Positions 1 through 10,103 of a stretch of 10,103 bases of DNA are shown piece by piece. Within the stretch, counting starts at the first letter, position 1. Every line of letters starts with the position of its first letter. Location: the UHGV virus genome UHGV-0293072. The stretch is one strand, 5' to 3'. The notes under the pieces were generated by a model. The model saw only the letters and a program-made list of their open reading frames with translations. It searched no databases and had not been told where the DNA came from. Origin of the DNA: a virus. The position numbers and the translations under genes are program-made.

Positions 1-146
1 ACGGCCAGCACGGTGGGGTATTGTATGCGCGGCGCAATATGGTGGCCGGTGGCTATATCAGCGGCGGCCTGACGCCTGACCAGGTCGAACAATCGGTCTT
101 TGATTATCTGCTGTTTGGTGACGTTGCTATCCTGAAAATTCCTTTG

Positions 147-1958
147 TCATGCTGCTTTCCCAAAGTACCAGCCCGATGGGCGGTCATATTCGTGATCGAT
201 AGGTTCGTTAATTACGGCGTGCGAAATGGCGAAGAAAACATCTGCATGGCCGGTCGCGTCTGAGCGTTCGGCAACAAATGTCAGCGCGTTGCCGCTGTTG
301 GTTGTCGTGCGCCGGATAGCCATAAAGCTGGCCGGAATTTCGACGCGCTCTTTGTTCGTTTCGTCTACGGCGTCTTTTGCCCATTCGATGCGCTTACGCT
401 CGACAACGTCGATCATCTTCATCACCAGGCGGTTTTTGCTTTCGACGCTGTAAAGAATGGGTGTGGCTTCGCGTGGCGCAAATTTGCTGACAAGGTCATA
501 AACGCCCTTACCTATGCCGGTTGTATCGATCCCGATGTAAGTGATGTTAAAGCGGCGCATAAGCTGCTTTATCTGGTCGGCCTGCCAGCTGAAGTTAAAG
601 CCCTGCCATTGCCAGACGGCCAGCACACGGAAGCGCTCGCCGTCCTCTATGGGGGGCGCGATTAACACAAAGGTGGAATTGTCGCCGGATCGTGACGGGT
701 CAAAGCCTGCCCATACTTCGCGATTGCCGAAGGGCCGCGCAGCGGTCAGATCAAAGTCGCCCCATGTGGCCCGGTCCACTTCACAGCCAACAAGCGCGGA
801 GAACTTGAAAACCGCGTCTTTACTGTCAACAAACTGGCACATGTAGAGCATGGCGAACGCGGTCGGGCTGTATTTGTTGCGCAGCCGTTCAATATCGACA
901 AGCGCCCCGAGGCCGCCTTCGATAGCGTCTTCCATCGTGATGATGTAGCGCCAGATCTGGTCCGGGCAAAGAATGCCCTGGCGCATTTCGCTTTCGTTCG
1001 GGAACTTCACACCTTTGCGTTTAGGGTCGTCCCCGCGCCAGGCTTCGCCAGTCCAGACCGGGTAAGCCTGGTGCGTTTTCGCGCTGGGCGTCGAAAAGTA
1101 GGTCGTGCGGTATTTGTTATGCGTTGCCATTGCGCTGGCAACTTCATGCAGGCGCGTGAATTTCGGGATCCAGAAAACCTCATCGCCATACAGGTGGCCG
1201 TTAAAGCCCTGTGCGGTACTGGCGTTCGTGGACAAAAAGCGCAGTATTGCGCCGTTACTGAGGCGGATATTTTTACCCGTCAGCGTCACGCCGAAATGGT
1301 TCTGGGCGATCTGGACGATGTATTCACGGAAGATTTCCGACTGGGAGCGGCTTGCAGAGAAAAAGACCTGGTTGTCACCGGTAATGACGGCGTCTTCAAA
1401 TGCTTCCCAGGCGAAATAATAGGTCATACCCACCTGGCGGCTTTTCAGAATGAAGCGCCAGTCTTCGCCTTTATGTTCGCGGCAGTGCAGCTGGTACTCG
1501 AAGAGATGTTCCCGCGCCCAGGTGTCGAGCATTTCCGCTGTAATACCGGAAACGTCGTTTTTCTTATACCGGCGCTTTCTTTCCCCAGGTTCCCCGCCTG
1601 CGCTGCTGAGGCAGTACCCTTCACCATCATAAGCCGCTTTCTGGGCCTGAATTTCTGCCAGCTTTTCGGCGTGCTTGTTGTGCTGCGCCATGAGCTTCAC
1701 ATGATGGGCAATCAGATCGCGTAGTTCCTCCAGTTCCAGCGCGGTTTTTTTCTCGCGGCGGGAGAGCTGGTCGATACGGCGGGCGATGACATTTTCCACC
1801 GATTCAACAGGCAGCAGTGATGCCCACTTCCCGACGTCAGCCCAGTGGTAAATTGTACGCGGTGGAATATTCAGTTCCTGCGCAATATCTTTCGGCGACC
1901 AGCTTTTTATATAAAGCGTGCGGGCCGCTTCTTTTAATTCATCGGAATATTTAGCCAT
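147..1958 (-). CDS. Phage terminase large (ATPase) subunit, P2 GpP-like
   Basis: 603-aa ORF, ATG at 1958-1956 and TGA at 149-147. Size, N-terminus (MAKYSDELKEAARTLYIKSW) and position divergent from a scaffold-capsid operon match the P2-family terminase ATPase arrangement. Family assignment is from recall, not a search. Confidence 0.85.
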   Translation of the reverse strand: MAKYSDELKEAARTLYIKSWSPKDIAQELNIPPRTIYHWADVGKWASLLPVESVENVIARRIDQLSRREKKTALELEELRDLIAHHVKLMAQHNKHAEKLAEIQAQKAAYDGEGYCLSSAGGEPGERKRRYKKNDVSGITAEMLDTWAREHLFEYQLHCREHKGEDWRFILKSRQVGMTYYFAWEAFEDAVITGDNQVFFSASRSQSEIFREYIVQIAQNHFGVTLTGKNIRLSNGAILRFLSTNASTAQGFNGHLYGDEVFWIPKFTRLHEVASAMATHNKYRTTYFSTPSAKTHQAYPVWTGEAWRGDDPKRKGVKFPNESEMRQGILCPDQIWRYIITMEDAIEGGLGALVDIERLRNKYSPTAFAMLYMCQFVDSKDAVFKFSALVGCEVDRATWGDFDLTAARPFGNREVWAGFDPSRSGDNSTFVLIAPPIEDGERFRVLAVWQWQGFNFSWQADQIKQLMRRFNITYIGIDTTGIGKGVYDLVSKFAPREATPILYSVESKNRLVMKMIDVVERKRIEWAKDAVDETNKERVEIPASFMAIRRTTTNSGNALTFVAERSDATGHADVFFAISHAVINEPIDHEYDRPSGWYFGKAA

Positions 1959-2135
1959 GCGGCTATTATGGCGGGATTATTTTGCAGAATTGATAATTAA
2001 ATATCGGTAAAAAGTGGCTATCCCATTATAACCGAATACATAAGAAATAAAGCGGTCGCGCTGTATTAATCAATTCGCAATACTGACCACCACAAACGAA
2101 TCATTGCTATTTTAATTCTTCAATAAAGGTCAGTT
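1959..2135. promoter_or_regulatory. Divergent AT-rich intergenic region, probable late promoters for the leftward terminase operon and the rightward scaffold-capsid operon
   Basis: 177-bp AT-rich gap between divergent starts at 1958 (-) and 2136 (+). Contains an imperfect dyad TGTATT-N11-AATACT at 2062-2084, i.e. TGT-N12-GCA rather than the canonical P2 Ogr-type TGT-N12-ACA. No confident -10/-35 identified. Confidence 0.4.
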
Positions 2136-3197
2136 ATGCCGCAATCTCATTACCGCACGGATTGGCTATGTATTGCCACATCTGGACAGGCTGTGGACGG
2201 TCGCACCATTGAACCGCAATGGTTGATTGATGCGGCAGAAACCTACACCCGCAAAACCTACACCGCCATGATTTGGCCGCACCACCCGCAATACGATATC
2301 GGCGAGCGTGAATTTACCTGCAACCTGGGTGAAGTGGACGCGCTGAAAGTGGAAACGGAAGGTGACGTCACGAAGTTATATGCCCAGTTAATCCCGAATC
2401 AATTTTTAATTGATGCCAACCGTATGGGGCAAAAGTTATTTACGTCAGCAGAATTTGTCACTGATTTTGCAGGCAGTGGTCGTGAATATCTTTTCGGGCT
2501 GGCTGTGACGGATATTCCGGCAAGTCTGGGAACGGAAAAACTTAAATTTGTTTTAGCCGGTGAAGAAAAAGACGCCGAGCGCGGGAGTCTGGAAACATTC
2601 AGCTTAGGGAAATTACAGACAAGTAAACCAGATAAAAAAGATTCTTTCTGGTCGCGTTTATTTTCGGCCAGTAAAGATTTTACGCCAACGCCAGAGCCAA
2701 ACACTGATAAGCCCACCGAGGGCGACGGAGAAAAAATGGAAGAATTAAAAGCGCTCATTCAGCAAATGCTGGATCTGCTTAAAAGCGGGAAAGACGCCGC
2801 AGCGGGTGACGCTGACACGGTTGATACCCCGGAACAGGCCGCAGATGTGGTGGCAGATGTTGCCGCCCAGATCGCTGATGCTGCCGACGAGGTGGCCGAG
2901 CTGGCGCAGGACGTTATCGAAAACCCGGAAGACGAAGTCAAAGCGGAAGAATTCAGCGCCGCCAAAGCCAACCTGGCAAAAGTCATGAAGTCATTCAATG
3001 TGACGCCAGCGAAGCGCCCACGCGCCAGCCGTCGCCGTGACTTTTCCGCCCGTCGCCAGCCCGCTGACAACCCAATGGACAACCTCGCCACGCAACTGAC
3101 TACCGCCCTGACCAAGTTGTCAGCGCTGGAAAACGGCAATACGCGCCGCCCTGGCAGCGCACCAGGTGGAAACAAAGAACCGTTTGAGTTTGTTTAA
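2136..3197 (+). CDS. Capsid scaffolding protein, P2 GpO-like
   Basis: 353-aa ORF with Shine-Dalgarno AAAGG 6 nt upstream of ATG 2136. It sits immediately upstream of the major capsid gene and has a long acidic Ala/Asp/Glu-rich C-terminal half typical of scaffolds. P2 gene order P | O N M L. Confidence 0.8.
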   Translation: MPQSHYRTDWLCIATSGQAVDGRTIEPQWLIDAAETYTRKTYTAMIWPHHPQYDIGEREFTCNLGEVDALKVETEGDVTKLYAQLIPNQFLIDANRMGQKLFTSAEFVTDFAGSGREYLFGLAVTDIPASLGTEKLKFVLAGEEKDAERGSLETFSLGKLQTSKPDKKDSFWSRLFSASKDFTPTPEPNTDKPTEGDGEKMEELKALIQQMLDLLKSGKDAAAGDADTVDTPEQAADVVADVAAQIADAADEVAELAQDVIENPEDEVKAEEFSAAKANLAKVMKSFNVTPAKRPRASRRRDFSARRQPADNPMDNLATQLTTALTKLSALENGNTRRPGSAPGGNKEPFEFV

Positions 3198-3225
3198 CAG
3201 CCATTCTTTTCAGGAATAAAAGATT

Positions 3226-4248
3226 ATGCAATTAACCCCAAAAGCAGAGCAGATGCTGCGTAAGTTTGCCGCAGGCCTGGCGAAAGCTAACGGCCAGGTG
3301 GACACGTCGCGCTACTTCTCGCTGACCAATCCGAAAGAAACCCAGCTGCGCAATGCCCTGTTGCAACAGTCTGAGTTCCTGCGCCTGCTGCCTAACGTAC
3401 TGGATGTGGACCAGATCACCGGCCAGGTGGTCAGCACCGGTAAACCGGGTATTTATACCGGGCGCAAAAAGGACGGTCGTTTCTCCCGCCCCCTGGGTGT
3501 TACCGGGAATGAATACAAGCTGGTAGAAACGGATTCCGGTTCGTATCTGCCTTACTCCCTGCTGGTTGTCTGGGCGAACGCGGGCAGTGAAGAGGAGTTC
3601 TTCCAGCGTATTCAGGCATTCAGCAACGAATCATTCGCGCTGGATATGCTGCGCGTGGCATTTAACGGTACAAGTGTTGCAGACGATACCGACCCGGAAA
3701 CCAACCCGAACGGCGAAGACGTCAACATCGGCTGGCACCAAATCGTTAAGGCCCGTTCGTCCGAACAGATTATTTCTGATGCCGTCACTATTGGCGCGTC
3801 GGGGGCTGACTTTATTGGTCTGGATGCGGCAGTCACTGACCTGGTGCACACCTGTATTTATGAGCCATTCCGCAATGACCCGCGCCTGGTTGTGCTGGCT
3901 TCCGCCGACCTTATCGGCAACGACGCCACCACGATGATGAATAAGATTGATCGCCCGACTGAGAAAGTCGCCGCGCAGCTTATTGGTCGCCAGATTGCTG
4001 GCCGTACCGTGTACACCCCGCCGTTTATGCCGGAGGGCCGCCTTATCGTCACCACGCTGGACAATCTGCATATCTACACCCAGCAGGGTACACGTAAGCG
4101 TAAAGCGGAATGGAACGACGACCGCAAGCGCTTCGAGAATAACTATCTGCGCATGGAAGGTTACGGCGTCGAGCATGACGAGCTGTATGCAGCATTCGAC
4201 AAAATCACCCTTGCGACCGGCGAAGTTGCACCGGGAGGGAGCGCATAA
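3226..4248 (+). CDS. Major capsid protein, P2 GpN family
   Basis: 340-aa ORF. Recalled P2 GpN-like blocks: VAFNGTS, NPNGEDVNIGWHQ, YEPFRNDPRLVVLASADLIG, and the C-terminal EHDELYAAFDKITLATGEV. Stop TAA at 4246-4248 lies 2 nt before the next ATG. Confidence 0.85.
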   Translation: MQLTPKAEQMLRKFAAGLAKANGQVDTSRYFSLTNPKETQLRNALLQQSEFLRLLPNVLDVDQITGQVVSTGKPGIYTGRKKDGRFSRPLGVTGNEYKLVETDSGSYLPYSLLVVWANAGSEEEFFQRIQAFSNESFALDMLRVAFNGTSVADDTDPETNPNGEDVNIGWHQIVKARSSEQIISDAVTIGASGADFIGLDAAVTDLVHTCIYEPFRNDPRLVVLASADLIGNDATTMMNKIDRPTEKVAAQLIGRQIAGRTVYTPPFMPEGRLIVTTLDNLHIYTQQGTRKRKAEWNDDRKRFENNYLRMEGYGVEHDELYAAFDKITLATGEVAPGGSA

Positions 4249-4250
4249 AA

Positions 4251-4952
4251 ATGGCCATGACCCCGTGTCAGCGACACCGAGCACGCGCGAAAGCCGCAAA
4301 GGCGCTGGATAAGTGCGAAGCACTGACGGCATCGCCGGTCAGCTTTCACATTCAAATGCTGGAGCTGGAAAAGGATGTTGAACGGCTTCGCAGTCTGACG
4401 CGTGCAGACCGTATGGACATGAAGCGCGACGTTCTTCTGCCGCGCTGGATGCCGACCGTTGAGGCATATCTTGCCGGTGATGCCCGCTTTGCCAATCCGG
4501 CCCTGGTTTACTGCGTGATCTGGCTGTTCGATACGGGGGAAATGGGCAAGGCGCTGGACTGGGCTGACGTGGCTATCAGTGAGAGCCAGGCCACGCCGGA
4601 GAACTTCAAAAGCAACCTGCCCGCCTTTGTGGCCGACACGGTGCTGGAGTGGGCGATCATGCAGGCGGAAGCCGGTCACAGCATCGAACCCTATTTCAGC
4701 CGCACGTTTGAAAACATCCGCGAAAAGTGGCGTTTGCACGAAGACATTAACGCGAAGTGGTTCAAATTCGCCGGTCTTTACCTGCTGCGCGACGAGAAGG
4801 GCCAGCCGCGTGCCACTGCCGTGGATGATGTGAATACGCTGGAACAGGCCGACGCCCTGCTGGCCCAGGCGGCGGCGTACAACAAAAACGCCGGAGTTAA
4901 GACCATGCGCGAAAAAATCCGCGCCCGGATTAACGGCCTGACCCAGCTTTAA
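4251..4952 (+). CDS. Terminase small (endonuclease) subunit, P2 GpM-like
   Basis: 233-aa ORF directly after the capsid gene, with a GGGAGGGA Shine-Dalgarno upstream. Position and size fit P2 GpM. Confidence 0.75.
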   Translation: MAMTPCQRHRARAKAAKALDKCEALTASPVSFHIQMLELEKDVERLRSLTRADRMDMKRDVLLPRWMPTVEAYLAGDARFANPALVYCVIWLFDTGEMGKALDWADVAISESQATPENFKSNLPAFVADTVLEWAIMQAEAGHSIEPYFSRTFENIREKWRLHEDINAKWFKFAGLYLLRDEKGQPRATAVDDVNTLEQADALLAQAAAYNKNAGVKTMREKIRARINGLTQL

Positions 4953-5054
4953 CGACTCCCGCAAGCCGGGACGGGCGCGGGGGAGGCATCAACCATACGG
5001 TTGTTGGCCGTGGAACCCGTCAGCCCGTTTCTATTGCAAAACCGAGGTACGCCA

Positions 5055-5528
5055 ATGAGTGGCCCTAGTTTCAGTATCAGCGGCAAGCCGGTGACGGTGA
5101 CGCCAACAGCGATCACCAACGGCGTGGCGTTCTGGCCCGATCTTGATCTGGCCGAGTTTCAGAAGGTGCGCACGTTGCCCGCTGACCTGCCGCCAGAAAC
5201 GGCAGGCGTGGCCCTGCTGGCCGCCATTGCGGAGGTAAACGACGCGCTGGCCGACGTGGTGACGTACTGGAACGCGAAAGCCTACGAACGGGCCGCAGAT
5301 GTACCGGGTGCAAAGATGGGCGACGAAACCCAATTAAAAGCCCAGTAAAAAAAAGCGGTCTACGCCCGCGCAAAGGCCGATTTACTGGGGGAATTCGCCA
5401 CCATCGGGCGACGTGAATCGCATCCGGGGCAGGAAAGCCAGGACACCCGCGCCAGCCTGCTGGCCGAGGCGGCCAATGTGATGCGAAACATGCTGCGACA
5501 ACCACGCGTTGGGGTGCATCTGATATGA
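5055..5528 (+). pseudogene. Head completion/stabilisation protein (P2 GpL-like) interrupted by an in-frame TAA at 5346-5348
   Basis: ATG 5055 with GAGG 7 nt upstream. The frame is open 5055-5345, hits TAA at 5346-5348, then the same frame stays open for 59 more sense codons (KKAVYARAKADLLGEFATIGRRESHPGQ...RVGVHLI) to TGA 5526-5528, which overlaps the ATG of the next gene. Combined length would be 157 aa, in the size range of GpL. Confidence 0.65.
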
Positions 5529-6001
5529 GCCAGCTTGAAAGCCTGACGGCGTTTATTACGGAAAATCTGCCGCCTGATGCCATGCAGATGTTTTCCAGTT
5601 CAATGGAGGATTGCGAGCTGGTACGCAACGCCAAAGCGCTGGGAAACAACCAGCGCCGGATCGGGGTGCTGACTTATACCGCCCGTTTGTCGTGGGATGA
5701 TTTCCCCTACCGCAAATATTCGCCGGGGCTGATTTATGCCCTGGTGCTGGCCTGGGTAGATGAGTTCGCCAACGAGCTGCGCGACGAGCTGAAGTTAGCC
5801 GATCCCACCGTGGACCCGGAGTTCGACGACGAAGGGTCATGCATTCTGGATGTGGTTGTCCCGCTGGTTGATCCGCTGGTCCTGCGTGAAGTGGAAAAAG
5901 GGCCGATCCCCTTCAAGGGTAAGAAATGGGACATCGTAAACCCCGAAATCTGGGAGGCGTCGCAACTGGAATTTATTGTCCAGCGTGGTGAGGCATCGTG
6001 A
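5525..6001 (+). CDS. Hypothetical phage structural protein in the neck/tail-completion position (possibly Mu gp36/DUF1320-like)
   Basis: 158-aa ORF. Its ATG 5525 overlaps the upstream TGA (ATGA) and its TGA 5999-6001 overlaps the downstream GTG start, indicating translational coupling. The family suggestion is a weak recollection only. Confidence 0.6.
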   Translation: MSQLESLTAFITENLPPDAMQMFSSSMEDCELVRNAKALGNNQRRIGVLTYTARLSWDDFPYRKYSPGLIYALVLAWVDEFANELRDELKLADPTVDPEFDDEGSCILDVVVPLVDPLVLREVEKGPIPFKGKKWDIVNPEIWEASQLEFIVQRGEAS

Positions 6002-6693
6002 TCCGTGGGGAGCTGAACCAACAACAGCTAAAGCAAATGCGGGAAACGCTGGCAAAAGCTGACCTTCCCCCGCGTAAGCGCCAGCGCCTTTTATGGCGTA
6101 TTGCAAAGCTGGGCATTGTCACAGCGGCAAAACGTCACCAGCGCCAGCAGGCGGCCCCGGACGGTACGCCGTGGGAGCCGCGCAAGCGTGGCAAAGGGAA
6201 AATGTTAAAAGGGCTGCCCAAACTGCTGGCTGTGCGTGAAATGCCGGAGATTCAGGGGGTAAGAATTTACCTCAAGGGCGGGAACTACCTGAACGGGACG
6301 AAGCCCATTGCGGCGGGTCTGGTCGGTGCGGTCCAGCAGGACGGTGCGCGGATCCAGATGAAAGCCAGTAACGCCCCGCGTAAGCCGCAGATTAACCAGC
6401 CCGCGTTACCGCGACAGGCCAAACGGCTGCGGGCGCTGGGCTACAAAACCCGCAAGGGTAAACGATGGGTTAAGCCGTCCAGCAGGCAAATCATGGAAAC
6501 CATGAGCATGGCCCAGGCGGGATTACTGATTCGAAAACTGAAAGGCACACCCTCAAAACGCACATGGACCATTGATATTCCTGGACGCGTTTTTCTGGGG
6601 GTGAGCAATGACGAATTTAACCAAATTATTGCGCGGCAAATGCAGGCAATCGGCTTCGGCTGGGACGTCACCGCGCAGCAAATCAGGGGGTAA
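5998..6693 (+). CDS. Phage virion morphogenesis / tail completion protein (P2 GpS, Mu gpK family)
   Basis: 231-aa basic protein with GTG start preceded by GGTGAGG. Motifs GTPWEPRKRGKG, RKGKRWVKP and IDIPGRVFLGV resemble the recalled W..P..R..G / GKRW / IPARPFL signature of the virion morphogenesis family. Confidence 0.65.
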   Translation: MIRGELNQQQLKQMRETLAKADLPPRKRQRLLWRIAKLGIVTAAKRHQRQQAAPDGTPWEPRKRGKGKMLKGLPKLLAVREMPEIQGVRIYLKGGNYLNGTKPIAAGLVGAVQQDGARIQMKASNAPRKPQINQPALPRQAKRLRALGYKTRKGKRWVKPSSRQIMETMSMAQAGLLIRKLKGTPSKRTWTIDIPGRVFLGVSNDEFNQIIARQMQAIGFGWDVTAQQIRG

Positions 6694-7146
6694 AAATGAC
6701 CTGGCCTACAGTCAACGTCAGTCAGAAAAACCGCTTCAACGGCACAACGAACGACGTCGAGCGCGTCATCCTCTTTGTGGGTTACGGCGACACTAACATC
6801 GGGAAAACCCAGTCGCTGAATACCGGCAGCGATCTGGATAAAGCCCTGGGCGACAAAGACAGCCCGTTAAAAAATATGGTGGCCGCTGCGGCCAATAACG
6901 CCGGACAGAACTGGTTTGCTTACGTGCATGTGCTGGCAGAGCCAGACAAGGGAGCCGAGGGCTACAAACCAGACGAAGACTGGATGAACGCAGTCAAACA
7001 GGCCCAGAGCGTGGCATCCGTGGAAGGGGTTGTCCTGGCATTTGATACCGCCGCCGCGGCCACCATTAACCGCGCAACGGAAATGCGCGTCACCTTACAG
7101 GCCAGTTTTGGGCGTTTTATCTGGTTTGCCCTTGCTGTGGGTGGGC

Positions 7147-7190
7147 CCGAAAAAGACGAAGTCATAATCGTGATACCACATCGGCACGCT
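7147..7190. repeat. Left junction repeats: A (7147-7161, ccgaaaaagacgaag) followed by B (7162-7190, tcataatcgtgataccacatcggcacgct)
   Basis: Exact reverse complements are present at 7454-7468 (A') and 7469-7497 (B'); verified base by base. Confidence 0.9.
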
Positions 7191-7468
7191 GTAGCGGCTT
7201 GCCTGCAAAGACTGCAACACAGCCAGATCAATTTCTGCGCCCGTCCCGTCCACCGGCAGGCCGTCGCGCCCCAGCGCGGTGACTGCACCGGTTGCGACGC
7301 GGGCGGGGCTGTCTGCCACCGTCACCGAACGGTTACACAGGCGACCAACCAGGACGCCGGGTTCGTTACCCCACAGGCGCGGGACCAGTTGCACCCCAGG
7401 CGAGGCAATACCGGCCTGGAGTTCAGCCAGGCGCGTCACATAGTCGCTCCATGCTTCGTCTTTTTCGG
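7162..7468 (-). other. Inverted internal block of the sheath-like gene (coding sense on minus strand)
   Basis: The minus strand reads SEKDE-AWSDYVTRLAELQAGIASPGVQLVPRLWGNEPGVLVGRLCNRSVTVADSPARVATGAVTALGRDGLPVDGTGAEIDLAVLQSLQASRY-SVPMWYHDYD, sharing EKDE with the plus-strand N-terminal fragment and SVPMWYHDYD with the plus-strand C-terminal fragment. Confidence 0.75.
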
Positions 7469-7497
7469 AGCGTGCCGATGTGGTATCACGATTATGA
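7454..7497. repeat. Right junction repeats: A' (7454-7468, cttcgtctttttcgg) followed by B' (7469-7497, agcgtgccgatgtggtatcacgattatga)
   Basis: Reverse complements of A and B at the left junction. The order on the right is A'-B', not B'-A' as a simple 44-bp inverted repeat would give. Confidence 0.9.
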
Positions 7498-7885
7498 CGG
7501 CATCTACTGGGCTGACGGTCGCACCCTGGACGTTGAAGGCGGTGATTATCAGGTGATTGAAAACGTGCGCGTGGTTGATAAAGCCTCCCGCCGCGTCCGT
7601 CTGCGTGCAATCCCTAAAATTGCCGATCGTTCGCTGAACAGTACACCGGGCAGCATTGCCGCGCATGAAACCTATTTCGGCAAGCCGCTGCGTGAAATGG
7701 CGATTTCAACCCAGATCAATGGTGTCGAATTTCCGGGCGAAGTGAAGCCACCAAAAGACGGCGATATCACCATCACCTGGACCAGTAGCGAAGCGGTACA
7801 GATTTACCTTGTGGTTCGACCGTATGAGAGCGCGAAAGAAATCGGCGTCAGCATCGAACTGGACACCTCACTGGAGAGCTAACCA

Positions 7886-8341
7886 ATGACTGAACGTATC
7901 AGCGGTGGATCATTCGATGTGAACTACGACGCCATCATGATTCACGTCGAAAACGCCACCGTCACCATTACGGACAACAGCGCGGTTGCGCAGTCGCGTG
8001 GCATCCCGAACGGCCACACGAAAGGGTCAGTTTCGGCGGATGTGGAAGTCGAAGTCGATTCCCAGAATTTTAAAAAGTTTACGGCTGTGGCCCGCGCCGC
8101 AGGCTCATGGCGGGCCATTCCGGCAAAGGACTTTTTGTTCTATGCCAATGCCGGGGACGACGAAGAAAAAATCGAAGTGTTTGGCTGTGTTCCGATGTTG
8201 TCCGACATCGTCAACATCAACCCTAACGAGGCCAGTAAAACCACGAAAAAAATTAAATTCATGGTGACAAGCCCGGATTTTGTCGCGATTGACGGCGTGC
8301 CGTACCTGTCTGCCCGTGACACTCGCGATCTGAAAGGCTGA
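7886..8341 (+). CDS. Tail tube-like protein
   Basis: 151-aa ORF with GGAGAG Shine-Dalgarno, immediately after the sheath-like gene. Size and position are typical of a contractile-tail tube protein. Assignment is by context. Confidence 0.6.
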   Translation: MTERISGGSFDVNYDAIMIHVENATVTITDNSAVAQSRGIPNGHTKGSVSADVEVEVDSQNFKKFTAVARAAGSWRAIPAKDFLFYANAGDDEEKIEVFGCVPMLSDIVNINPNEASKTTKKIKFMVTSPDFVAIDGVPYLSARDTRDLKG

Positions 8342-8345
8342 CACG

Positions 8346-8657
8346 ATGATGAATGGAGAGGCATCACTGCTGGAAAAACTGTTGCTTATCGGGGCCGTGA
8401 TCGGACTGGGGCAACTGATGGCAAGCAATGAGCAAATCACAGCCCGTTTGCTGATCGGGCGGATGATTCTGGGATCGGCGGTCGCACCACTGGCCGCAAT
8501 CCCGCTGCTGAAATTTCCTGAAATGCCGGAACTGGTCGTCATTGGTCTGGCCTGCGCCCTGGGCATTCTGGGGAGCGCGTTTATTGAGGCAGGGCTAAAG
8601 CGCTGCCTGGATATGTATATCAAGCGATGGGGGAGCAAGCGCAATGAAACTGAGTGA
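8346..8657 (+). CDS. Holin (three predicted transmembrane segments, dual ATG-ATG start)
   Basis: 103 aa with three hydrophobic stretches (LLLIGAVIGLGQLMA, LLIGRMILGSAVAPLAAIPLL, LVVIGLACALGILGSAFI) and a charged C-terminus. It directly precedes and overlaps the endolysin gene. Confidence 0.7.
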   Translation: MMNGEASLLEKLLLIGAVIGLGQLMASNEQITARLLIGRMILGSAVAPLAAIPLLKFPEMPELVVIGLACALGILGSAFIEAGLKRCLDMYIKRWGSKRNETE

Positions 8658-8982
8658 AAAACAGCAACTTTTCACGGTGATGATCGCCAACCTGATTCAT
8701 TTTGCCGAAGACAAGGGCTATCGCCTGACGTTTGGCGAAGCGTACCGCACACCAGAGCAGGCCGCGATCAACGCAAAAAAAGGGAGTGGCATTGCTAACA
8801 GCCTGCATACCCAGCGCCTGGCCGTGGACTTTAACCTGTTTGTTAACGGCGAATACCAGACCGACAGCGCCGCTTATCGCCCGCTGGGTGAATACTGGGA
8901 ATCCATCGGTGGATCATGGGGTGGCCGTTTCAGTAAGCCGGACGGCAACCATTTCAGTCTTGAGCATAACGGGGTGAGCTGA
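8644..8982 (+). CDS. Endolysin, peptidase M15 family (zinc-dependent cell-wall peptidase)
   Basis: 112 aa with an H-x6-D motif (SLHTQRLAVD) and a second His (GNHFSLEH), consistent with M15 zinc ligands. GGGGGAG Shine-Dalgarno upstream; start overlaps the holin 3' end. Confidence 0.75.
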   Translation: MKLSEKQQLFTVMIANLIHFAEDKGYRLTFGEAYRTPEQAAINAKKGSGIANSLHTQRLAVDFNLFVNGEYQTDSAAYRPLGEYWESIGGSWGGRFSKPDGNHFSLEHNGVS

Positions 8983-9365
8983 TGCGAAATGTGCTGGGTC
9001 TTTTGTTGATTCTGGCCGCTGCTATGTGGGCGGGCTGGCAGGCGCATGACTGGCACGACGCAAAGCTGAAACTCGCTGCCAGCGAAGCGGCAGAACAAAC
9101 GCGCCAGATTGTCGTTGAGGTGACGCGGCAGTCTGGTGAAGCGCTGGAAGCAAAACTCGCGGGGCTTAAAGCCAATGAAATTCATACGGAACGGGTTATC
9201 CGCACGGAAACCATTAAGCCGGTTTTTAGCAACGTTTGTGCTTCTGATGATTACGTCCGGCTGTTCAACGAAAGTGCAGATCAAGCCGAGCGAGAATTAT
9301 CAGGAAAACCAGATGACACTTTGCCCGGTAAGACCACCACGTCTGGCCGGACCGACAGGAAATGA
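8982..9365 (+). CDS. i-spanin (Rz-like)
   Basis: 127 aa with an N-terminal transmembrane anchor (LGLLLILAAAMWAGW) followed by a charged, helical periplasmic domain. ATG overlaps the endolysin stop (TGATG). Contains an embedded +1-frame lipoprotein ORF. Confidence 0.7.
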   Translation: MRNVLGLLLILAAAMWAGWQAHDWHDAKLKLAASEAAEQTRQIVVEVTRQSGEALEAKLAGLKANEIHTERVIRTETIKPVFSNVCASDDYVRLFNESADQAERELSGKPDDTLPGKTTTSGRTDRK

Positions 9366-9471
9366 TTTTGACGCGGCGCTGACAGCCTACCGGCAGATGT
9401 ATACCGACTGCGCCGCCCGACATAACGCCCTAGTGGGCATCATTCGACAACGTAAGGAATTAACACAATGA
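9175..9471 (+). CDS. o-spanin (Rz1-like outer-membrane lipoprotein), embedded in and extending beyond the i-spanin gene
   Basis: +1-frame ORF inside Rz. Signal peptide with lipobox-like TSGC (Cys at 9262-9264), Pro-rich mature part with additional Cys. Start is ambiguous: ATG 9175, or GTG 9136 with GAGGTGA upstream. Its stop TGA 9469-9471 overlaps the next ATG. Confidence 0.6.
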   Translation: MKFIRNGLSARKPLSRFLATFVLLMITSGCSTKVQIKPSENYQENQMTLCPVRPPRLAGPTGNDFDAALTAYRQMYTDCAARHNALVGIIRQRKELTQ

Positions 9472-9737
9472 GTAAACCGAACAAAATCACCATGACCGTG
9501 GCGGGTGTCAATCTGAGCTTTGAGCCGAATAAAACCGCGTTCAATAACCTGATTAACGAAATGACCATGACCAATAAGATTGCGCCAATGGCGACGTATC
9601 TGGGGCGTATCGTTGATGCCGACTGTAAAGAGGCACTTAGCAAGCTGATGGAAGATTATCCGGGTTGCGAAATGCAGATCGTTGAAAAGGTTAACGAGAT
9701 TTACTCCCCCAAACTTGAGATCGAAGTAAAAAACTGA
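9468..9737 (+). CDS. Putative tail assembly chaperone (G-like) with a 3'-terminal -1 slippery site
   Basis: 89-aa ORF with AAGGA Shine-Dalgarno. It ends ...GTA AAA AAC TGA with heptamer A_AAA_AAC in the zero frame, and the -1 frame is open from there to the window end. Position ahead of the presumed tape-measure region fits the conserved chaperone frameshift arrangement. Confidence 0.5.
   Translation: MSKPNKITMTVAGVNLSFEPNKTAFNNLINEMTMTNKIAPMATYLGRIVDADCKEALSKLMEDYPGCEMQIVEKVNEIYSPKLEIEVKN
9728..9734 (+). promoter_or_regulatory. Candidate -1 programmed ribosomal frameshift heptamer A_AAA_AAC
   Basis: Canonical X_XXY_YYZ slippery pattern in the correct phase, 1 nt before the zero-frame stop. 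No downstream pseudoknot or stem-loop was evaluated. Confidence 0.45.
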
Positions 9738-10103
9738 CGGCGCGGGTAGCGGCCATTCGCACGAATGCCCTGGAGCAATACCTTGCCTTGAGCGCGTCCT
9801 CTGCTACGCCTTTGGAACCCACTTCTGCAAGTGCGGCGTTCATCTCATACGCCGGACCCACCACGCCCGCGATGGACTGCGCCACGCCCCAGACAGCCGC
9901 CGCACCGATCCCGATTTTTGTAAAAGACGCCTGCGATTTTTCAGCAAAGCCGGACAACGAAGATGCGATGAAAGGTGCAATGGCGGGCCTGTCCGATATG
10001 GACCTGCCCCGCGTCACCATCGCGGCCAATACCCTGGCGGCAGGCGTCAAGGCCAGCGGCGAAGAGGCAGGCGAATACATCGGTGCGATGGCGTCACGTT
10101 TCA
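9728..10103 (+). CDS. -1 frame extension of the chaperone (GT-like fusion) and/or 5' part of the next tail gene; truncated by the window end
   Basis: The -1 frame has no stop from 9719 to 10103 (over 125 codons). High-quality codon usage from about 9968 (MKGAMAGLSDMDLPRVTIAANTLAAGVKASGEEAGEYIGAMASRF). No good Shine-Dalgarno before the in-frame ATGs at 9872 or 9968, favouring access by frameshifting. Confidence 0.4.

Follow-up and report, generated by a model that had tools for sequence, protein, structure and literature searches.

A probable lineage-wide module step downstream of the tail-completion genes in the late region of an Irrigatiovirus-like phage or prophage

Gene content and relatives of the late region

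The window, that is, the whole stretch of 10,103 nucleotides analyzed here from virus genome UHGV-0293072, carried head, tail, and lysis genes in the following arrangement, with the evidence for each feature in brackets.

1..141, + strand: portal gene fragment (gpQ homologue), inverted (blastn against SI7, an E. coli prophage, and Logan contigs; junction alignment)
147..1958, - strand: terminase large subunit (gpP homologue), 603 aa (Pfam Terminase_6N, Terminase_6C, Terminase_5)
2136..3197, + strand: capsid scaffold/protease (gpO homologue), 353 aa (Pfam Phage_GPO, E 1.2e-38)
3226..4248, + strand: major capsid protein, P2 family (gpN homologue), 340 aa (Pfam Phage_cap_P2, E 1.7e-85)
4251..4952, + strand: terminase small subunit (gpM homologue), 233 aa (Pfam Phage_term_smal, E 3.3e-34)
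5055..5528, + strand: head completion/head-tail adaptor Ad1 (gpL homologue), interrupted (Pfam Phage_GPL, the match ending at the internal stop)
5525..6001, + strand: tail terminator/tail completion protein R (P2 gpR family; HP1 orf21 homologue), 158 aa, intact (Pfam, phrog_65)
5998..6693, + strand: tail completion/Neck1 protein S (P2 gpS family; HP1 orf22 homologue), 231 aa, intact (Pfam, phrog_26)
6696..7882, + strand: HP1-type tail sheath gene (DUF2586), disrupted (Pfam DUF2586, phrog_907, ORFs, blastn)
7886..8341, + strand: HP1-type tail tube (HP1 orf24 homologue), 151 aa (Pfam Phage_HP1_Orf24, E 2.3e-51; phrog_1182)
8346..9471, + strand: lysis cassette (Pfam; annotation of SI7 and an E. 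coli prophage), made up of the next four features
8346-8657, + strand: holin (Pfam Phage_holin_3_2; 39% identical to P2 gpY)
8644-8982, + strand: M15 peptidase endolysin (Pfam Peptidase_M15_4)
8982-9365, + strand: Rz-like spanin (annotation of SI7 and an E. coli prophage)
9136-9471, + strand: embedded Rz1/LysC-like ORF (weak LysC match, Pfam)
9468..9737, + strand: tail assembly chaperone, 89 aa (Pfam Phage_TAC_10, E 3.7e-31)
9787..10103, no strand assigned: tape-measure gene start, rearranged (blastn, junction alignments)

Much of this had been recognized in a first-pass annotation, which described a P2-like order of head genes (P on the - strand, then O N M L; borne out by ORFs and Pfam) followed by proteins of 158 aa (5525-6001) and 231 aa (5998-6693), both of them real genes by their Pfam and PHROG matches, and by a 151-aa tube-like gene (7886-8341). 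It had also placed the genes after L outside the P2 order, in agreement with our comparison to the gene order of P2 itself. The sheath-like gene of about 380 aa that it reported does belong to DUF2586 once repaired, but in the window an inverted segment of 308 nt divides it into two ORFs of 286 aa (6696-7556) and 196 aa (7292-7882). Scans of the window for Rfam families, tRNAs, and tandem repeats returned nothing. The region between P and O contained no P2-type TGT-N12-ACA activator dyad, and the motif occurred four times elsewhere in the window, at chance level.

Sequence similarity identifies the window as the late region of a phage or prophage of the Peduoviridae (HP1 group) that resembles Irrigatiovirus, a genus-level likeness assessed on the 10 kb of genome available. 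Specifically, the Irrigatiovirus exemplar, Salmonella phage SI7, was 96.6% identical at the DNA level over 7,024 nt (window 139-7161), with a second alignment at 93.7% over 2,325 nt, and two Logan public contigs were 99.9-100% identical to the window (all by blastn). Prophages of E. coli were 95.4% identical, one of them shown between yegR and yegQ, and over window positions 139-7161 an E. coli prophage reached 96.0% DNA identity. The gene content and order of the window, from terminase to tape measure, recurred in SI7, SW3, and SW5 (Irrigatiovirus) as well as in the E. coli prophages, and its proteins were 87-99.7% identical to those of Irrigatiovirus phages and E. coli prophages; R was 86.7% identical to that of SI7 versus 98.7% to that of the E. 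coli prophage. Irrigatiovirus has been placed in the HP1 group (PMC10612066), and we found in the window both the late gene order of this Peduoviridae group (Q P, O N M L R S sheath tube, lysis, chaperone, tape measure) and its tail-protein types, namely a DUF2586 sheath and an HP1_Orf24 tube (PMC10612066, Table 2).

Haemophilus phage HP1 (Hpunavirus) has the same order as the window, that is, Q P, O N M orf20(L) orf21(R) orf22(S) orf23(sheath) orf24(tube) hol lys Rz chaperone TMP, with Pfam matches of orf21 to GpR, orf23 to DUF2586, and orf24 to HP1_Orf24. Its sheath and tube are 52-53% identical to those of the window (52% for orf24 and the window tube), and its R and S share only 23-30% identity with their counterparts. 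The lysis genes differ, in that the window endolysin is an M15 peptidase to which HP1 lys has no similarity, and the similarity of the window holin is to P2 gpY instead of HP1 hol. The window gene order was identical in HP1, SI7, ev239, phiO18P, phi3, and yong1, which represent six genera with hosts ranging from Haemophilus to Pseudomonas, and differed from that of P2, 186, phiCTX, and RSA1. Hence, the order flagged in the first-pass annotation is the normal, already published layout of the HP1 group and not a new hybrid. Knowledge of this layout dates back to the HP1 genome (1996).

Enterobacteria phage P2 (Peduovirus) has the Q P, O N M L order and the corresponding Pfam families in common with the window, and its R and S are likewise adjacent, with R first, and share their Pfam and PHROG families with the window proteins. 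Unlike the window, P2 carries X, Y, K, and lysABC between L and R, and S is followed there by the baseplate and fiber genes V W J I H G, with FI/FII located in an operon of their own (FI/FII-E-T-U-D) about 8 kb further on. Neither sheath and tube proteins of the P2 families nor the P2-group order L-X-lysis-R-S...FI FII were present in the window. In the window, L, R, and S are chained by overlapping stop and start codons, and R and S belong to a single, closely spaced run of late genes, O-N-M-L-R-S-sheath-tube followed by the lysis genes, chaperone, and tape measure, in the order usual throughout the HP1 group.

Rearrangements in this copy of the genome

This copy of the late region contained three small inversions, one each in portal, sheath, and tape measure, and gpL was interrupted by a stop codon; these are genes that are intact in Irrigatiovirus phages and E. 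coli prophages, including a sheath of 380 aa. The portal fragment (1..141) corresponds to L005 3936->3796 in inverted orientation and lacks the 205 nt by which it is ordinarily connected to the portal start. In gpL, an in-frame TAA occupies 5346-5348, where all four relatives compared (4/4) have TAC, and C->A changes at 5338 and 5348 are private to the window. The sheath gene is colinear with its intact relatives at 6696-7161 and 7469-7882, and the stretch between them, 7161-7468, is present as its reverse complement; the inversion is accompanied by duplications of 15 nt (7147-7161/7454-7468) and 29-30 nt (7162-7190/7469-7497), with a net effect of +44 nt and a frameshift. It was seen as inverted repeats I1 and I23 and confirmed by blastn. 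Undoing it in silico restored a 380-aa DUF2586 sheath, 97.9% identical to that of SI7, and Pfam DUF2586 E values were 8.5e-31 and 4.9e-61 for the two fragments and 6.3e-132 for the intact allele. At the tape-measure gene, 9787-9963 is L005 14128->13952 inverted and 9963-10103 is colinear with L005 14202-14342, with 199 nt (including the start codon) and 73 nt missing at the junctions.

The lesions occurred in none of the relatives and public collections compared or scanned. A 38-mer of the sheath junction was absent from genome_contigs, viral_contigs, and metagenome_contigs, none of the complete E. coli genomes spanned this junction, and no record of the chimeric 286-aa ORF or the truncated 97-aa gpL was found. 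Searching proteins with the C-terminal fragment of the sheath yielded fragments only, and one of these, P0121, was rejected as a candidate for the same inversion because it is an ordinary truncated gene call. Because the lesions are missing from contigs that are 99.9-100% identical to the window, they may be assembly or sequencing artefacts; because they affect portal, gpL, sheath, and tape measure, the genes in this copy may not belong to a working phage. Either an artefact or a dead prophage accounts for them, and those who use this copy as a reference should beware of its structural lesions.

Family membership of R and S

The 158-aa protein R is, by its profile matches, a member of the P2 gpR family. 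It matched Pfam P2_Phage_GpR (PF06891) at E 1.1e-18 (68.1 bits against a cutoff of 25) over profile positions 1-130 of 133 and phrog_65 at E 1.2e-28, the PHROG that also contains P2 gpR; HP1 orf21 and P2 gpR fell in the same families as the window R. More distant comparisons were less clear, with a weak hhalign result between the R proteins of the HP1 and P2 groups (E 2.4e-5, probability 76%) and no BLAST match of the window R to P2 gpR. Its start codon overlaps the gpL stop (ATGA at 5525-5528). By analogy to P2 genetics, R would be a gpR-type tail terminator that caps the finished tube and sheath.

Similarly, the 231-aa protein S can be assigned to the P2 gpS/Phage_tail_S virion morphogenesis (Neck1) family. 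Its GTG start overlaps the R stop (GTGA), with GGTGAGG upstream. Pfam Phage_tail_S (PF05069) was matched at E 3.7e-7 (30.6 bits against a cutoff of 24.3) over profile positions 3-61 of 148 only, and phrog_26, to which P2 gpS also belongs, at E 3.4e-32 across residues 1-231. A direct alignment to P2 gpS showed 31% identity over 113 aa (tblastn), and hhalign of the HP1 group against the P2 group gave E 1.1e-10 (probability 97%). We detected 255 homologues of S at E<=0.001, and the 120 listed came from Enterobacterales genomes or metagenome/SRA assemblies. P2 gpS is the Ne1 protein, and gpS mutants make tails that are unable to join heads (PMC4362835); on this precedent, the window S may be a gpS-type Neck1 protein without which a completed tail would not attach to the head.

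A module joint inside S was considered, given that hhalign aligned only residues 10-124 to P2 gpS, and was rejected because the C-terminal 107 aa alone matched phrog_26 (4.5e-10) at profile positions that P2 gpS covers too. The S proteins of the HP1 group are longer, that of P2 being about 80 aa shorter. An AF2 model of S (37-sequence alignment) had a pLDDT of 60.3 and a pTM of 0.34, with no Foldseek match against the PDB below E 2.9, and PDB sequence searches with R, S, the tube, and the repaired sheath produced nothing meaningful. Overall, the label of a 'non-P2' neck given earlier to the 158-aa and 231-aa proteins does not hold, both being in the Pfam and PHROG families of P2 gpR and gpS, and their annotation is corrected here to gpR and gpS homologues.

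Position and age of the module step

The head proteins of the window were consistently nearer to those of HP1 than to those of P2 (48 vs 41% identity, the values for P, then 49 vs 36%, 33 vs 26%, 39 vs 23%, and 37 vs 25%), and hhalign of the HP1 group against the P2 group readily connected the head genes (P, 7e-162; O, 2e-43; N, 1e-65; M, 2e-25; L, 1e-20). The same approach detected no homology between the two groups for the sheath (E 0.86) or the tube (E 0.2), which belong to DUF2586/phrog_907 and Phage_HP1_Orf24/phrog_1182 in the window versus Phage_sheath_1/phrog_23 and Phage_tube/phrog_55 in P2. These two are the most conserved genes inside each group, at 49-55% identity for the sheath and 56-70% for the tube, and the remaining tail proteins were 30-62% identical to those of HP1 and matched nothing in P2. 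Prior studies have noted that HP1 shares with P2 the order of its capsid genes and that the tail genes are 'generally' not similar (PMC2771037), and have argued for two tail modules of ancient divergence, one in the P2 group and the other in the HP1 group (PMC10612066).

We consider it very probable that 5525-6693 comprises the tail-completion genes of an HP1-group phage, and that the step in this region is an old, lineage-wide one at 6693/6696, not a recent joint at 5525. Because R and S are in the P2 gpR and gpS families, any boundary falls at 6693/6696 and not at 5525, and the sharing of the order across the HP1 group, together with head proteins that are nearer to those of HP1 than to those of P2, speaks against 5525 as a junction at which head and tail were recently joined; no such junction exists there. 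Thus, the module boundary proposed initially stands insofar as the sheath and tube families differ from P2 FI/FII, but its position moves. The head genes, L, R, and S are recognizable P2 homologues, with the sheath, tube, and rest of the tail forming a different, anciently diverged module, and the step between S and sheath may reflect an ancient module replacement. The weak hhalign result for R and its lack of a BLAST match to P2 gpR indicate that R and S are more diverged than the head genes, so that the step is not perfectly sharp. The split between P2 and HP1 tail modules is already in the literature and the discovery value is correspondingly small; what the per-gene measurement does is set the divergence step at the S/sheath junction.

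An alternative that retains some weight, and that we nonetheless regard as unlikely, is that no module was replaced and that sheath and tube descended vertically from the ancestor of the head genes, diverged past recognition, and had their order rearranged in one lineage. The intermediate divergence of R and S, which makes the profile graded and not a clean step, is in its favor, as is the general contractile-sheath fold predicted for the sheath. Specifically, an AF2 model of a 98%-identical protein (P0171) had a mean pLDDT of 60.6, good in the N-terminal domain and poor in the C-terminal one, and the top 10 Foldseek matches were all contractile sheaths (E 9e-7 to 1e-3, TM about 0.4), which suggests a contractile tail sheath fold with moderate confidence. 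However, sheath and tube are the slowest-evolving genes within the groups and yet are undetectable between them, whereas the head genes, which evolve faster, can still be matched at E 1e-20 or better, and published time trees of sheath and portal differ in depth (PMC10612066), which also speaks against common vertical descent. A further counterexample comes from Flavobacterium phage FPSV-S1 (Winoviridae), which has a full-length DUF2586/phrog_907 sheath (Pfam E 6e-51) with a C-terminal domain 29% identical to that of the window lineage. Its head module is unlike that of the window, with a Mu gp29-like portal, a Clp protease, and a PBSX-type terminase, so the sheath type is not tied to P2-type heads. 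The tube, tape measure, and baseplate of FPSV-S1 had no BLAST-level similarity to those of the window lineage.

Whether the HP1-type tail module is exchanged with non-P2 heads has been posed as an open question (PMC10612066). That the FPSV-S1 sheath is a first sign of such exchange, or else that the lesions in this copy are real, seems to us quite improbable. The former would mean that the HP1-type module, like the P2-type, has been exchanged with non-P2 heads. The latter would mean that the three microhomology-poor inversions and the nonsense codon arose on a background 99.9-100% identical to intact prophages, in a burst of template-switch-type rearrangements by which the portal, adaptor, sheath, and tape measure, four essential virion genes of a prophage, were selectively knocked out.

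Less probable still is that the unusual layout is itself a product of degradation in a decaying, non-functional prophage remnant. The three inversions, with their junction deletions and duplications, and the nonsense codon in gpL would fit such decay of the portal, gpL, sheath, and tape-measure genes, but phages isolated in intact form, among them SI7 and HP1, have exactly the flagged order, R and S are intact, and the lesions lie outside 5525-6693 and are absent from the 99.9-100% identical contigs.

Finally, the hybrid first proposed, if taken as a specific and fairly recent joining of a P2-like head to a non-P2 (Mu- or SfV-like) neck and tail at about 5525, is hardly credible, since, although the genes after L depart from the P2 order and sheath and tube are in non-P2 families, R and S belong to the P2 gpR and gpS families, the head genes are nearer to HP1 than to P2, the same order extends across six genera, a sequence-level comparison of R, S, sheath, and tube with Mu and SfV by tblastn produced no E value under 0.4 and no match in the equivalent tail genes, and 5525 itself, where the L stop overlaps the R start, has no step in GC or composition and, like the R/S and S/sheath junctions, no + strand terminator-like or promoter-like site. 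Sliding identity plots against SI7 and the E. coli prophage were also without a sharp break at 5525. Their only irregularity was a modest divergent patch inside R, in SI7.

Layout and identity of the late genes

Megablast of the window recovered the Salmonella phages SI7, SW3, and SW5 (Peduoviridae, genus Irrigatiovirus), and SI7 was 96.6% identical across 7 kb by blastn. Related prophages covering 80% or more of the window, at ~95% identity, were present in 18 of 5,426 complete E. coli genomes, and the one examined sits between yegR and yegQ. Additionally, two Logan contigs encoding an identical 231-aa protein were 99.9-100% identical to the window. The two open reading frames at 5525-6693 were located at exactly these coordinates and, based on the ORF list and their Pfam and PHROG matches, are real genes.

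Features of the window (coordinates, strand, description), from the ORF list and Pfam/PHROG scans
147-1958, minus, terminase large subunit
2136-3197, plus, gpO scaffold/protease
3226-4248, plus, P2-family major capsid
4251-4952, plus, small terminase
5055-5528, plus, gpL head completion
5525-6001, plus, 158-aa protein (R)
5998-6693, plus, 231-aa protein (S)
6696-7882, plus, split sheath gene
7886-8341, plus, 151-aa tube protein
8346-9471, plus, holin, M15 endolysin, Rz, and Rz1
9468-9737, plus, tail assembly chaperone
9787-10103, no strand given, tape-measure gene with rearranged start

The AT-rich intergenic region between the divergent P and O genes (1959-2135; GC about 0.46) contained no TGT-N12-ACA dyad, the type annotated as the P2 late-promoter activator site. 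In relatives, an ogr/delta-type gene adjoins the portal gene.

The 158-aa protein matched almost the whole Pfam model P2_Phage_GpR (E 1.1e-18; 68 bits, cutoff 25) as well as phrog_65, 'tail terminator'. For the 231-aa protein, the match to Phage_tail_S exceeded the cutoff (E 3.7e-7) and covered just the N-terminal part, and the match to phrog_26 (E 3.4e-32), annotated 'tail completion or Neck1 protein', spanned the whole protein. P2 gpR and gpS belonged to the same two PHROGs and Pfam families, HP1 orf21 is likewise a GpR family member, and P2 gpS was 31% identical to the 231-aa protein over 113 aa (tblastn). In P2, gpR is annotated as the tail completion/terminator protein. The Ne1 neck protein of P2 is gpS, whose mutants produce tails unable to attach to heads (PMC4362835). 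The first-pass annotation had described a 'non-P2 neck/tail set'; the sheath and tube were indeed non-P2, whereas family membership indicates that the neck genes, R and S, are P2-type.

At E<=0.001 we found 255 homologues of the 231-aa protein. The 120 listed were ~230 aa long and came from Enterobacterales genomes or unnamed assemblies, many of the named ones being labeled 'phage virion morphogenesis protein'. The gpS-type proteins were 218-234 aa in the HP1 group versus 148-156 aa in P2, 186, phiCTX, and RSA1, and the extra length was kept throughout the HP1 group; in the AF2 model of S, residues 130-185 were the sole confidently modeled part. R (5525-6001, compared with 6243-6719 of a relative, L001) shared only 86.7% identity with its SI7 counterpart, against 98.7% with that of the E. 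coli prophage, and for the neighboring proteins the values were 96-99.7% in both comparisons. At 5690-5840, within R, the DNA was 88-90% identical to SI7, and this divergent stretch is a small mosaic patch inside the genus.

Position of the step between the P2 and HP1 groups

A boundary between P2-like head genes and a non-P2 neck/tail set had been proposed at about 5525, but we found no sign of a junction there in GC, gene overlaps, terminator or promoter sites, or head-protein identities. GC ran smoothly through the position (0.58 to 0.56), the L stop and R start overlapped in ATGA, the R stop and S start overlapped in GTGA, and the sheath gene began 2 bases after the S stop, preceded by an AGGGGG motif. 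Plus-strand terminator-like or promoter-like sites were absent where L meets R, R meets S, and S meets the sheath gene. The head proteins were all nearer to HP1 than to P2, specifically the large terminase (48% versus 41% identity), O (49% versus 36%), N (33% versus 26%), M (39% versus 23%), and L (37% versus 25%), such that head and tail agree and the entire late region is HP1-group.

The annotated HP1 order, Q P / O N M orf20 (L) orf21 (R) orf22 (S) orf23 (sheath) orf24 (tube) hol lys Rz orf26 TMP, matched that of the window exactly, and was also annotated in SI7, Escherichia phage ev239 (Evevirus), Aeromonas phiO18P (Bielevirus), Pseudomonas phi3 (Phitrevirus), and Vibrio yong1 (Yongunavirus). 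In contrast, P2, 186, phiCTX, and RSA1 have L-X-lysis-R-S, followed by baseplate and fiber genes and finally by FI FII E T U D. The earlier observation that the genes after L do not follow the P2 order was thus borne out, and the gene calls largely stood, apart from a sheath ORF broken by an inversion and a stop codon in gpL. Homologues of the 231-aa protein and the sheath were found in 72 and 82 phage records, respectively, and those listed were HP1-group, with the sole exception of Flavobacterium phages (sheath only).

As in HP1, the lysis cassette (8346-9471) separates the tube gene from the chaperone gene, but its components were mosaic. The holin (Phage_holin_3_2) was 39% identical to P2 gpY, the endolysin was a Peptidase_M15_4 enzyme without similarity to HP1 lys or P2 K, and an Rz1/LysC-like ORF was embedded in Rz.

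For nine proteins from six HP1-group and four P2-group genomes, the groups were compared gene by gene using Smith-Waterman scores and hhalign. The hhalign E-values between groups were 7e-162 for P, 2e-43 for O, 1e-65 for N, 2e-25 for M, 1e-20 for L, 2e-5 for R (probability 76%), and 1e-10 for S (probability 97%), versus 0.86 for the sheath and 0.2 for the tube. The latter two were the best conserved genes inside each group (identities of 49-55% among HP1-group and 56-70% among P2-group genomes) and belonged to different families, the sheath to phrog_907/DUF2586 in the window versus phrog_23/Phage_sheath_1 in P2, and the tube to phrog_1182/HP1_Orf24 versus phrog_55/Phage_tube. In the SI7 lineage, the other tail proteins, namely the tape measure, DUF2590, J, I, and gp22-24, were 30-62% identical to HP1 and had no similarity to P2 except a short fiber motif. 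Collectively, the per-gene profile, the family break, and the remaining tail proteins show that the discontinuity relative to P2 is real and lies at the S/sheath junction (6693/6696), two genes to the right of the proposed boundary; R and S are intermediate, and the step belongs to the whole HP1 group.

This discontinuity is already in the literature. Irrigatiovirus is listed in the 'HP1 group', and the head and connector modules behave as vertically inherited, the tail module being 'a much older paralog' (PMC10612066). HP1 and P2 phages share the order of their six capsid genes, and of the tail genes it is said that they 'show generally no similarity' (PMC2771037). The interpretation as a head/tail hybrid was partly supported: gene order, sheath, and tube are non-P2, but the neck genes are of P2 families, and the arrangement is already known as the ordinary published layout of HP1-group Peduoviridae, not a new hybrid.

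The DUF2586 sheath within and outside Peduoviridae

The suggested comparison with Mu/SfV-like phages, run by tblastn against Mu and SfV, recovered nothing below E 0.4 for L, R, S, sheath, or tube, and no hits at corresponding genes. Sequence searches found no PDB relative of the DUF2586 protein. The AF2 model of P0171, a 98%-identical protein, was confident in the N-terminal domain and poor in the C-terminal one (mean pLDDT 60.6). The top ten Foldseek hits of this model among PDB entries were all contractile sheaths (E 9e-7 to 1e-3), from phage 812, Milano, Streptomyces CIS, and PVC, and they back the assignment of the protein as a sheath with moderate confidence.

Flavobacterium phage FPSV-S1 (L014, 11320-12492) and its relatives (Winoviridae) also encode a DUF2586 sheath of full length (phrog_907; Pfam E 6e-51), where it adjoins a non-P2 head module with a Mu-gp29-like portal, Clp protease, and PBSX-type terminase. 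The HP1-type sheath family thus exists outside Peduoviridae and is not restricted to P2-type heads. At the BLAST level, the sheath was the only component detectably common to the window lineage and FPSV-S1.

Lesions private to this copy

Compared with SI7, an E. coli prophage, and the two Logan contigs of 99.9-100% identity, the window had four kinds of lesion, all of them outside 5525-6693, leaving the verdict on that stretch unaffected. Positions 1-141 were an inverted portal fragment (3936 to 3796 in L005, a relative), joined with a 2-3-nt overlap to the final 8 nt preceding the terminase stop; 205 nt of the portal 5′ region were missing, and the left limit of the inversion lies beyond the window. 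In the sheath gene (6696-7882), an inverted 308-nt piece (7161-7468) was flanked by duplications of 15 nt (7147-7161 and 7454-7468) and 29-30 nt (7162-7190 and 7469-7497), in the pattern a b' X' a' b, which added 44 nt, shifted the frame, and split the gene into ORFs of 286 and 196 aa. This inversion was absent from SI7, the E. coli prophages, the two 99.9-100% identical contigs, and all scanned collections. An inverted 177-nt tape-measure fragment occupied 9787-9963, with 199 nt missing at one junction, among them the start codon of the tape-measure gene and the region of the second chaperone ORF, and 73 nt at the other, and the 129-aa ORF at 9691-10080 (minus) was tape-measure sequence read from the wrong strand. 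Finally, gpL had two private C-to-A changes 10 nt apart in an A-rich stretch (5338 and 5348), both positions being C in 4/4 relatives; the second converted TAC (Tyr) to an in-frame TAA (5346-5348), ending the product at residue 97 of 157.

Microhomology at the lesion junctions was at most 7 nt, and neither the junction sequence nor the chimeric ORF products were found in any collection scanned. Near the 9793 junction, some base differences were the E. coli prophage allele, which makes the backbone a natural variant rather than an edited version of the Logan contig. The lesions may be real, the prophage being dead, or may be an artefact of assembly or library.

One public sheath fragment, P0122 (147 aa, from a Logan contig), began with ~21 residues of unrelated sequence, joined to normal sheath sequence at '...IYWADGRTLD', near the right breakpoint region of the inversion in the window. 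A separate rearrangement or insertion may have occurred at this position in another genome.
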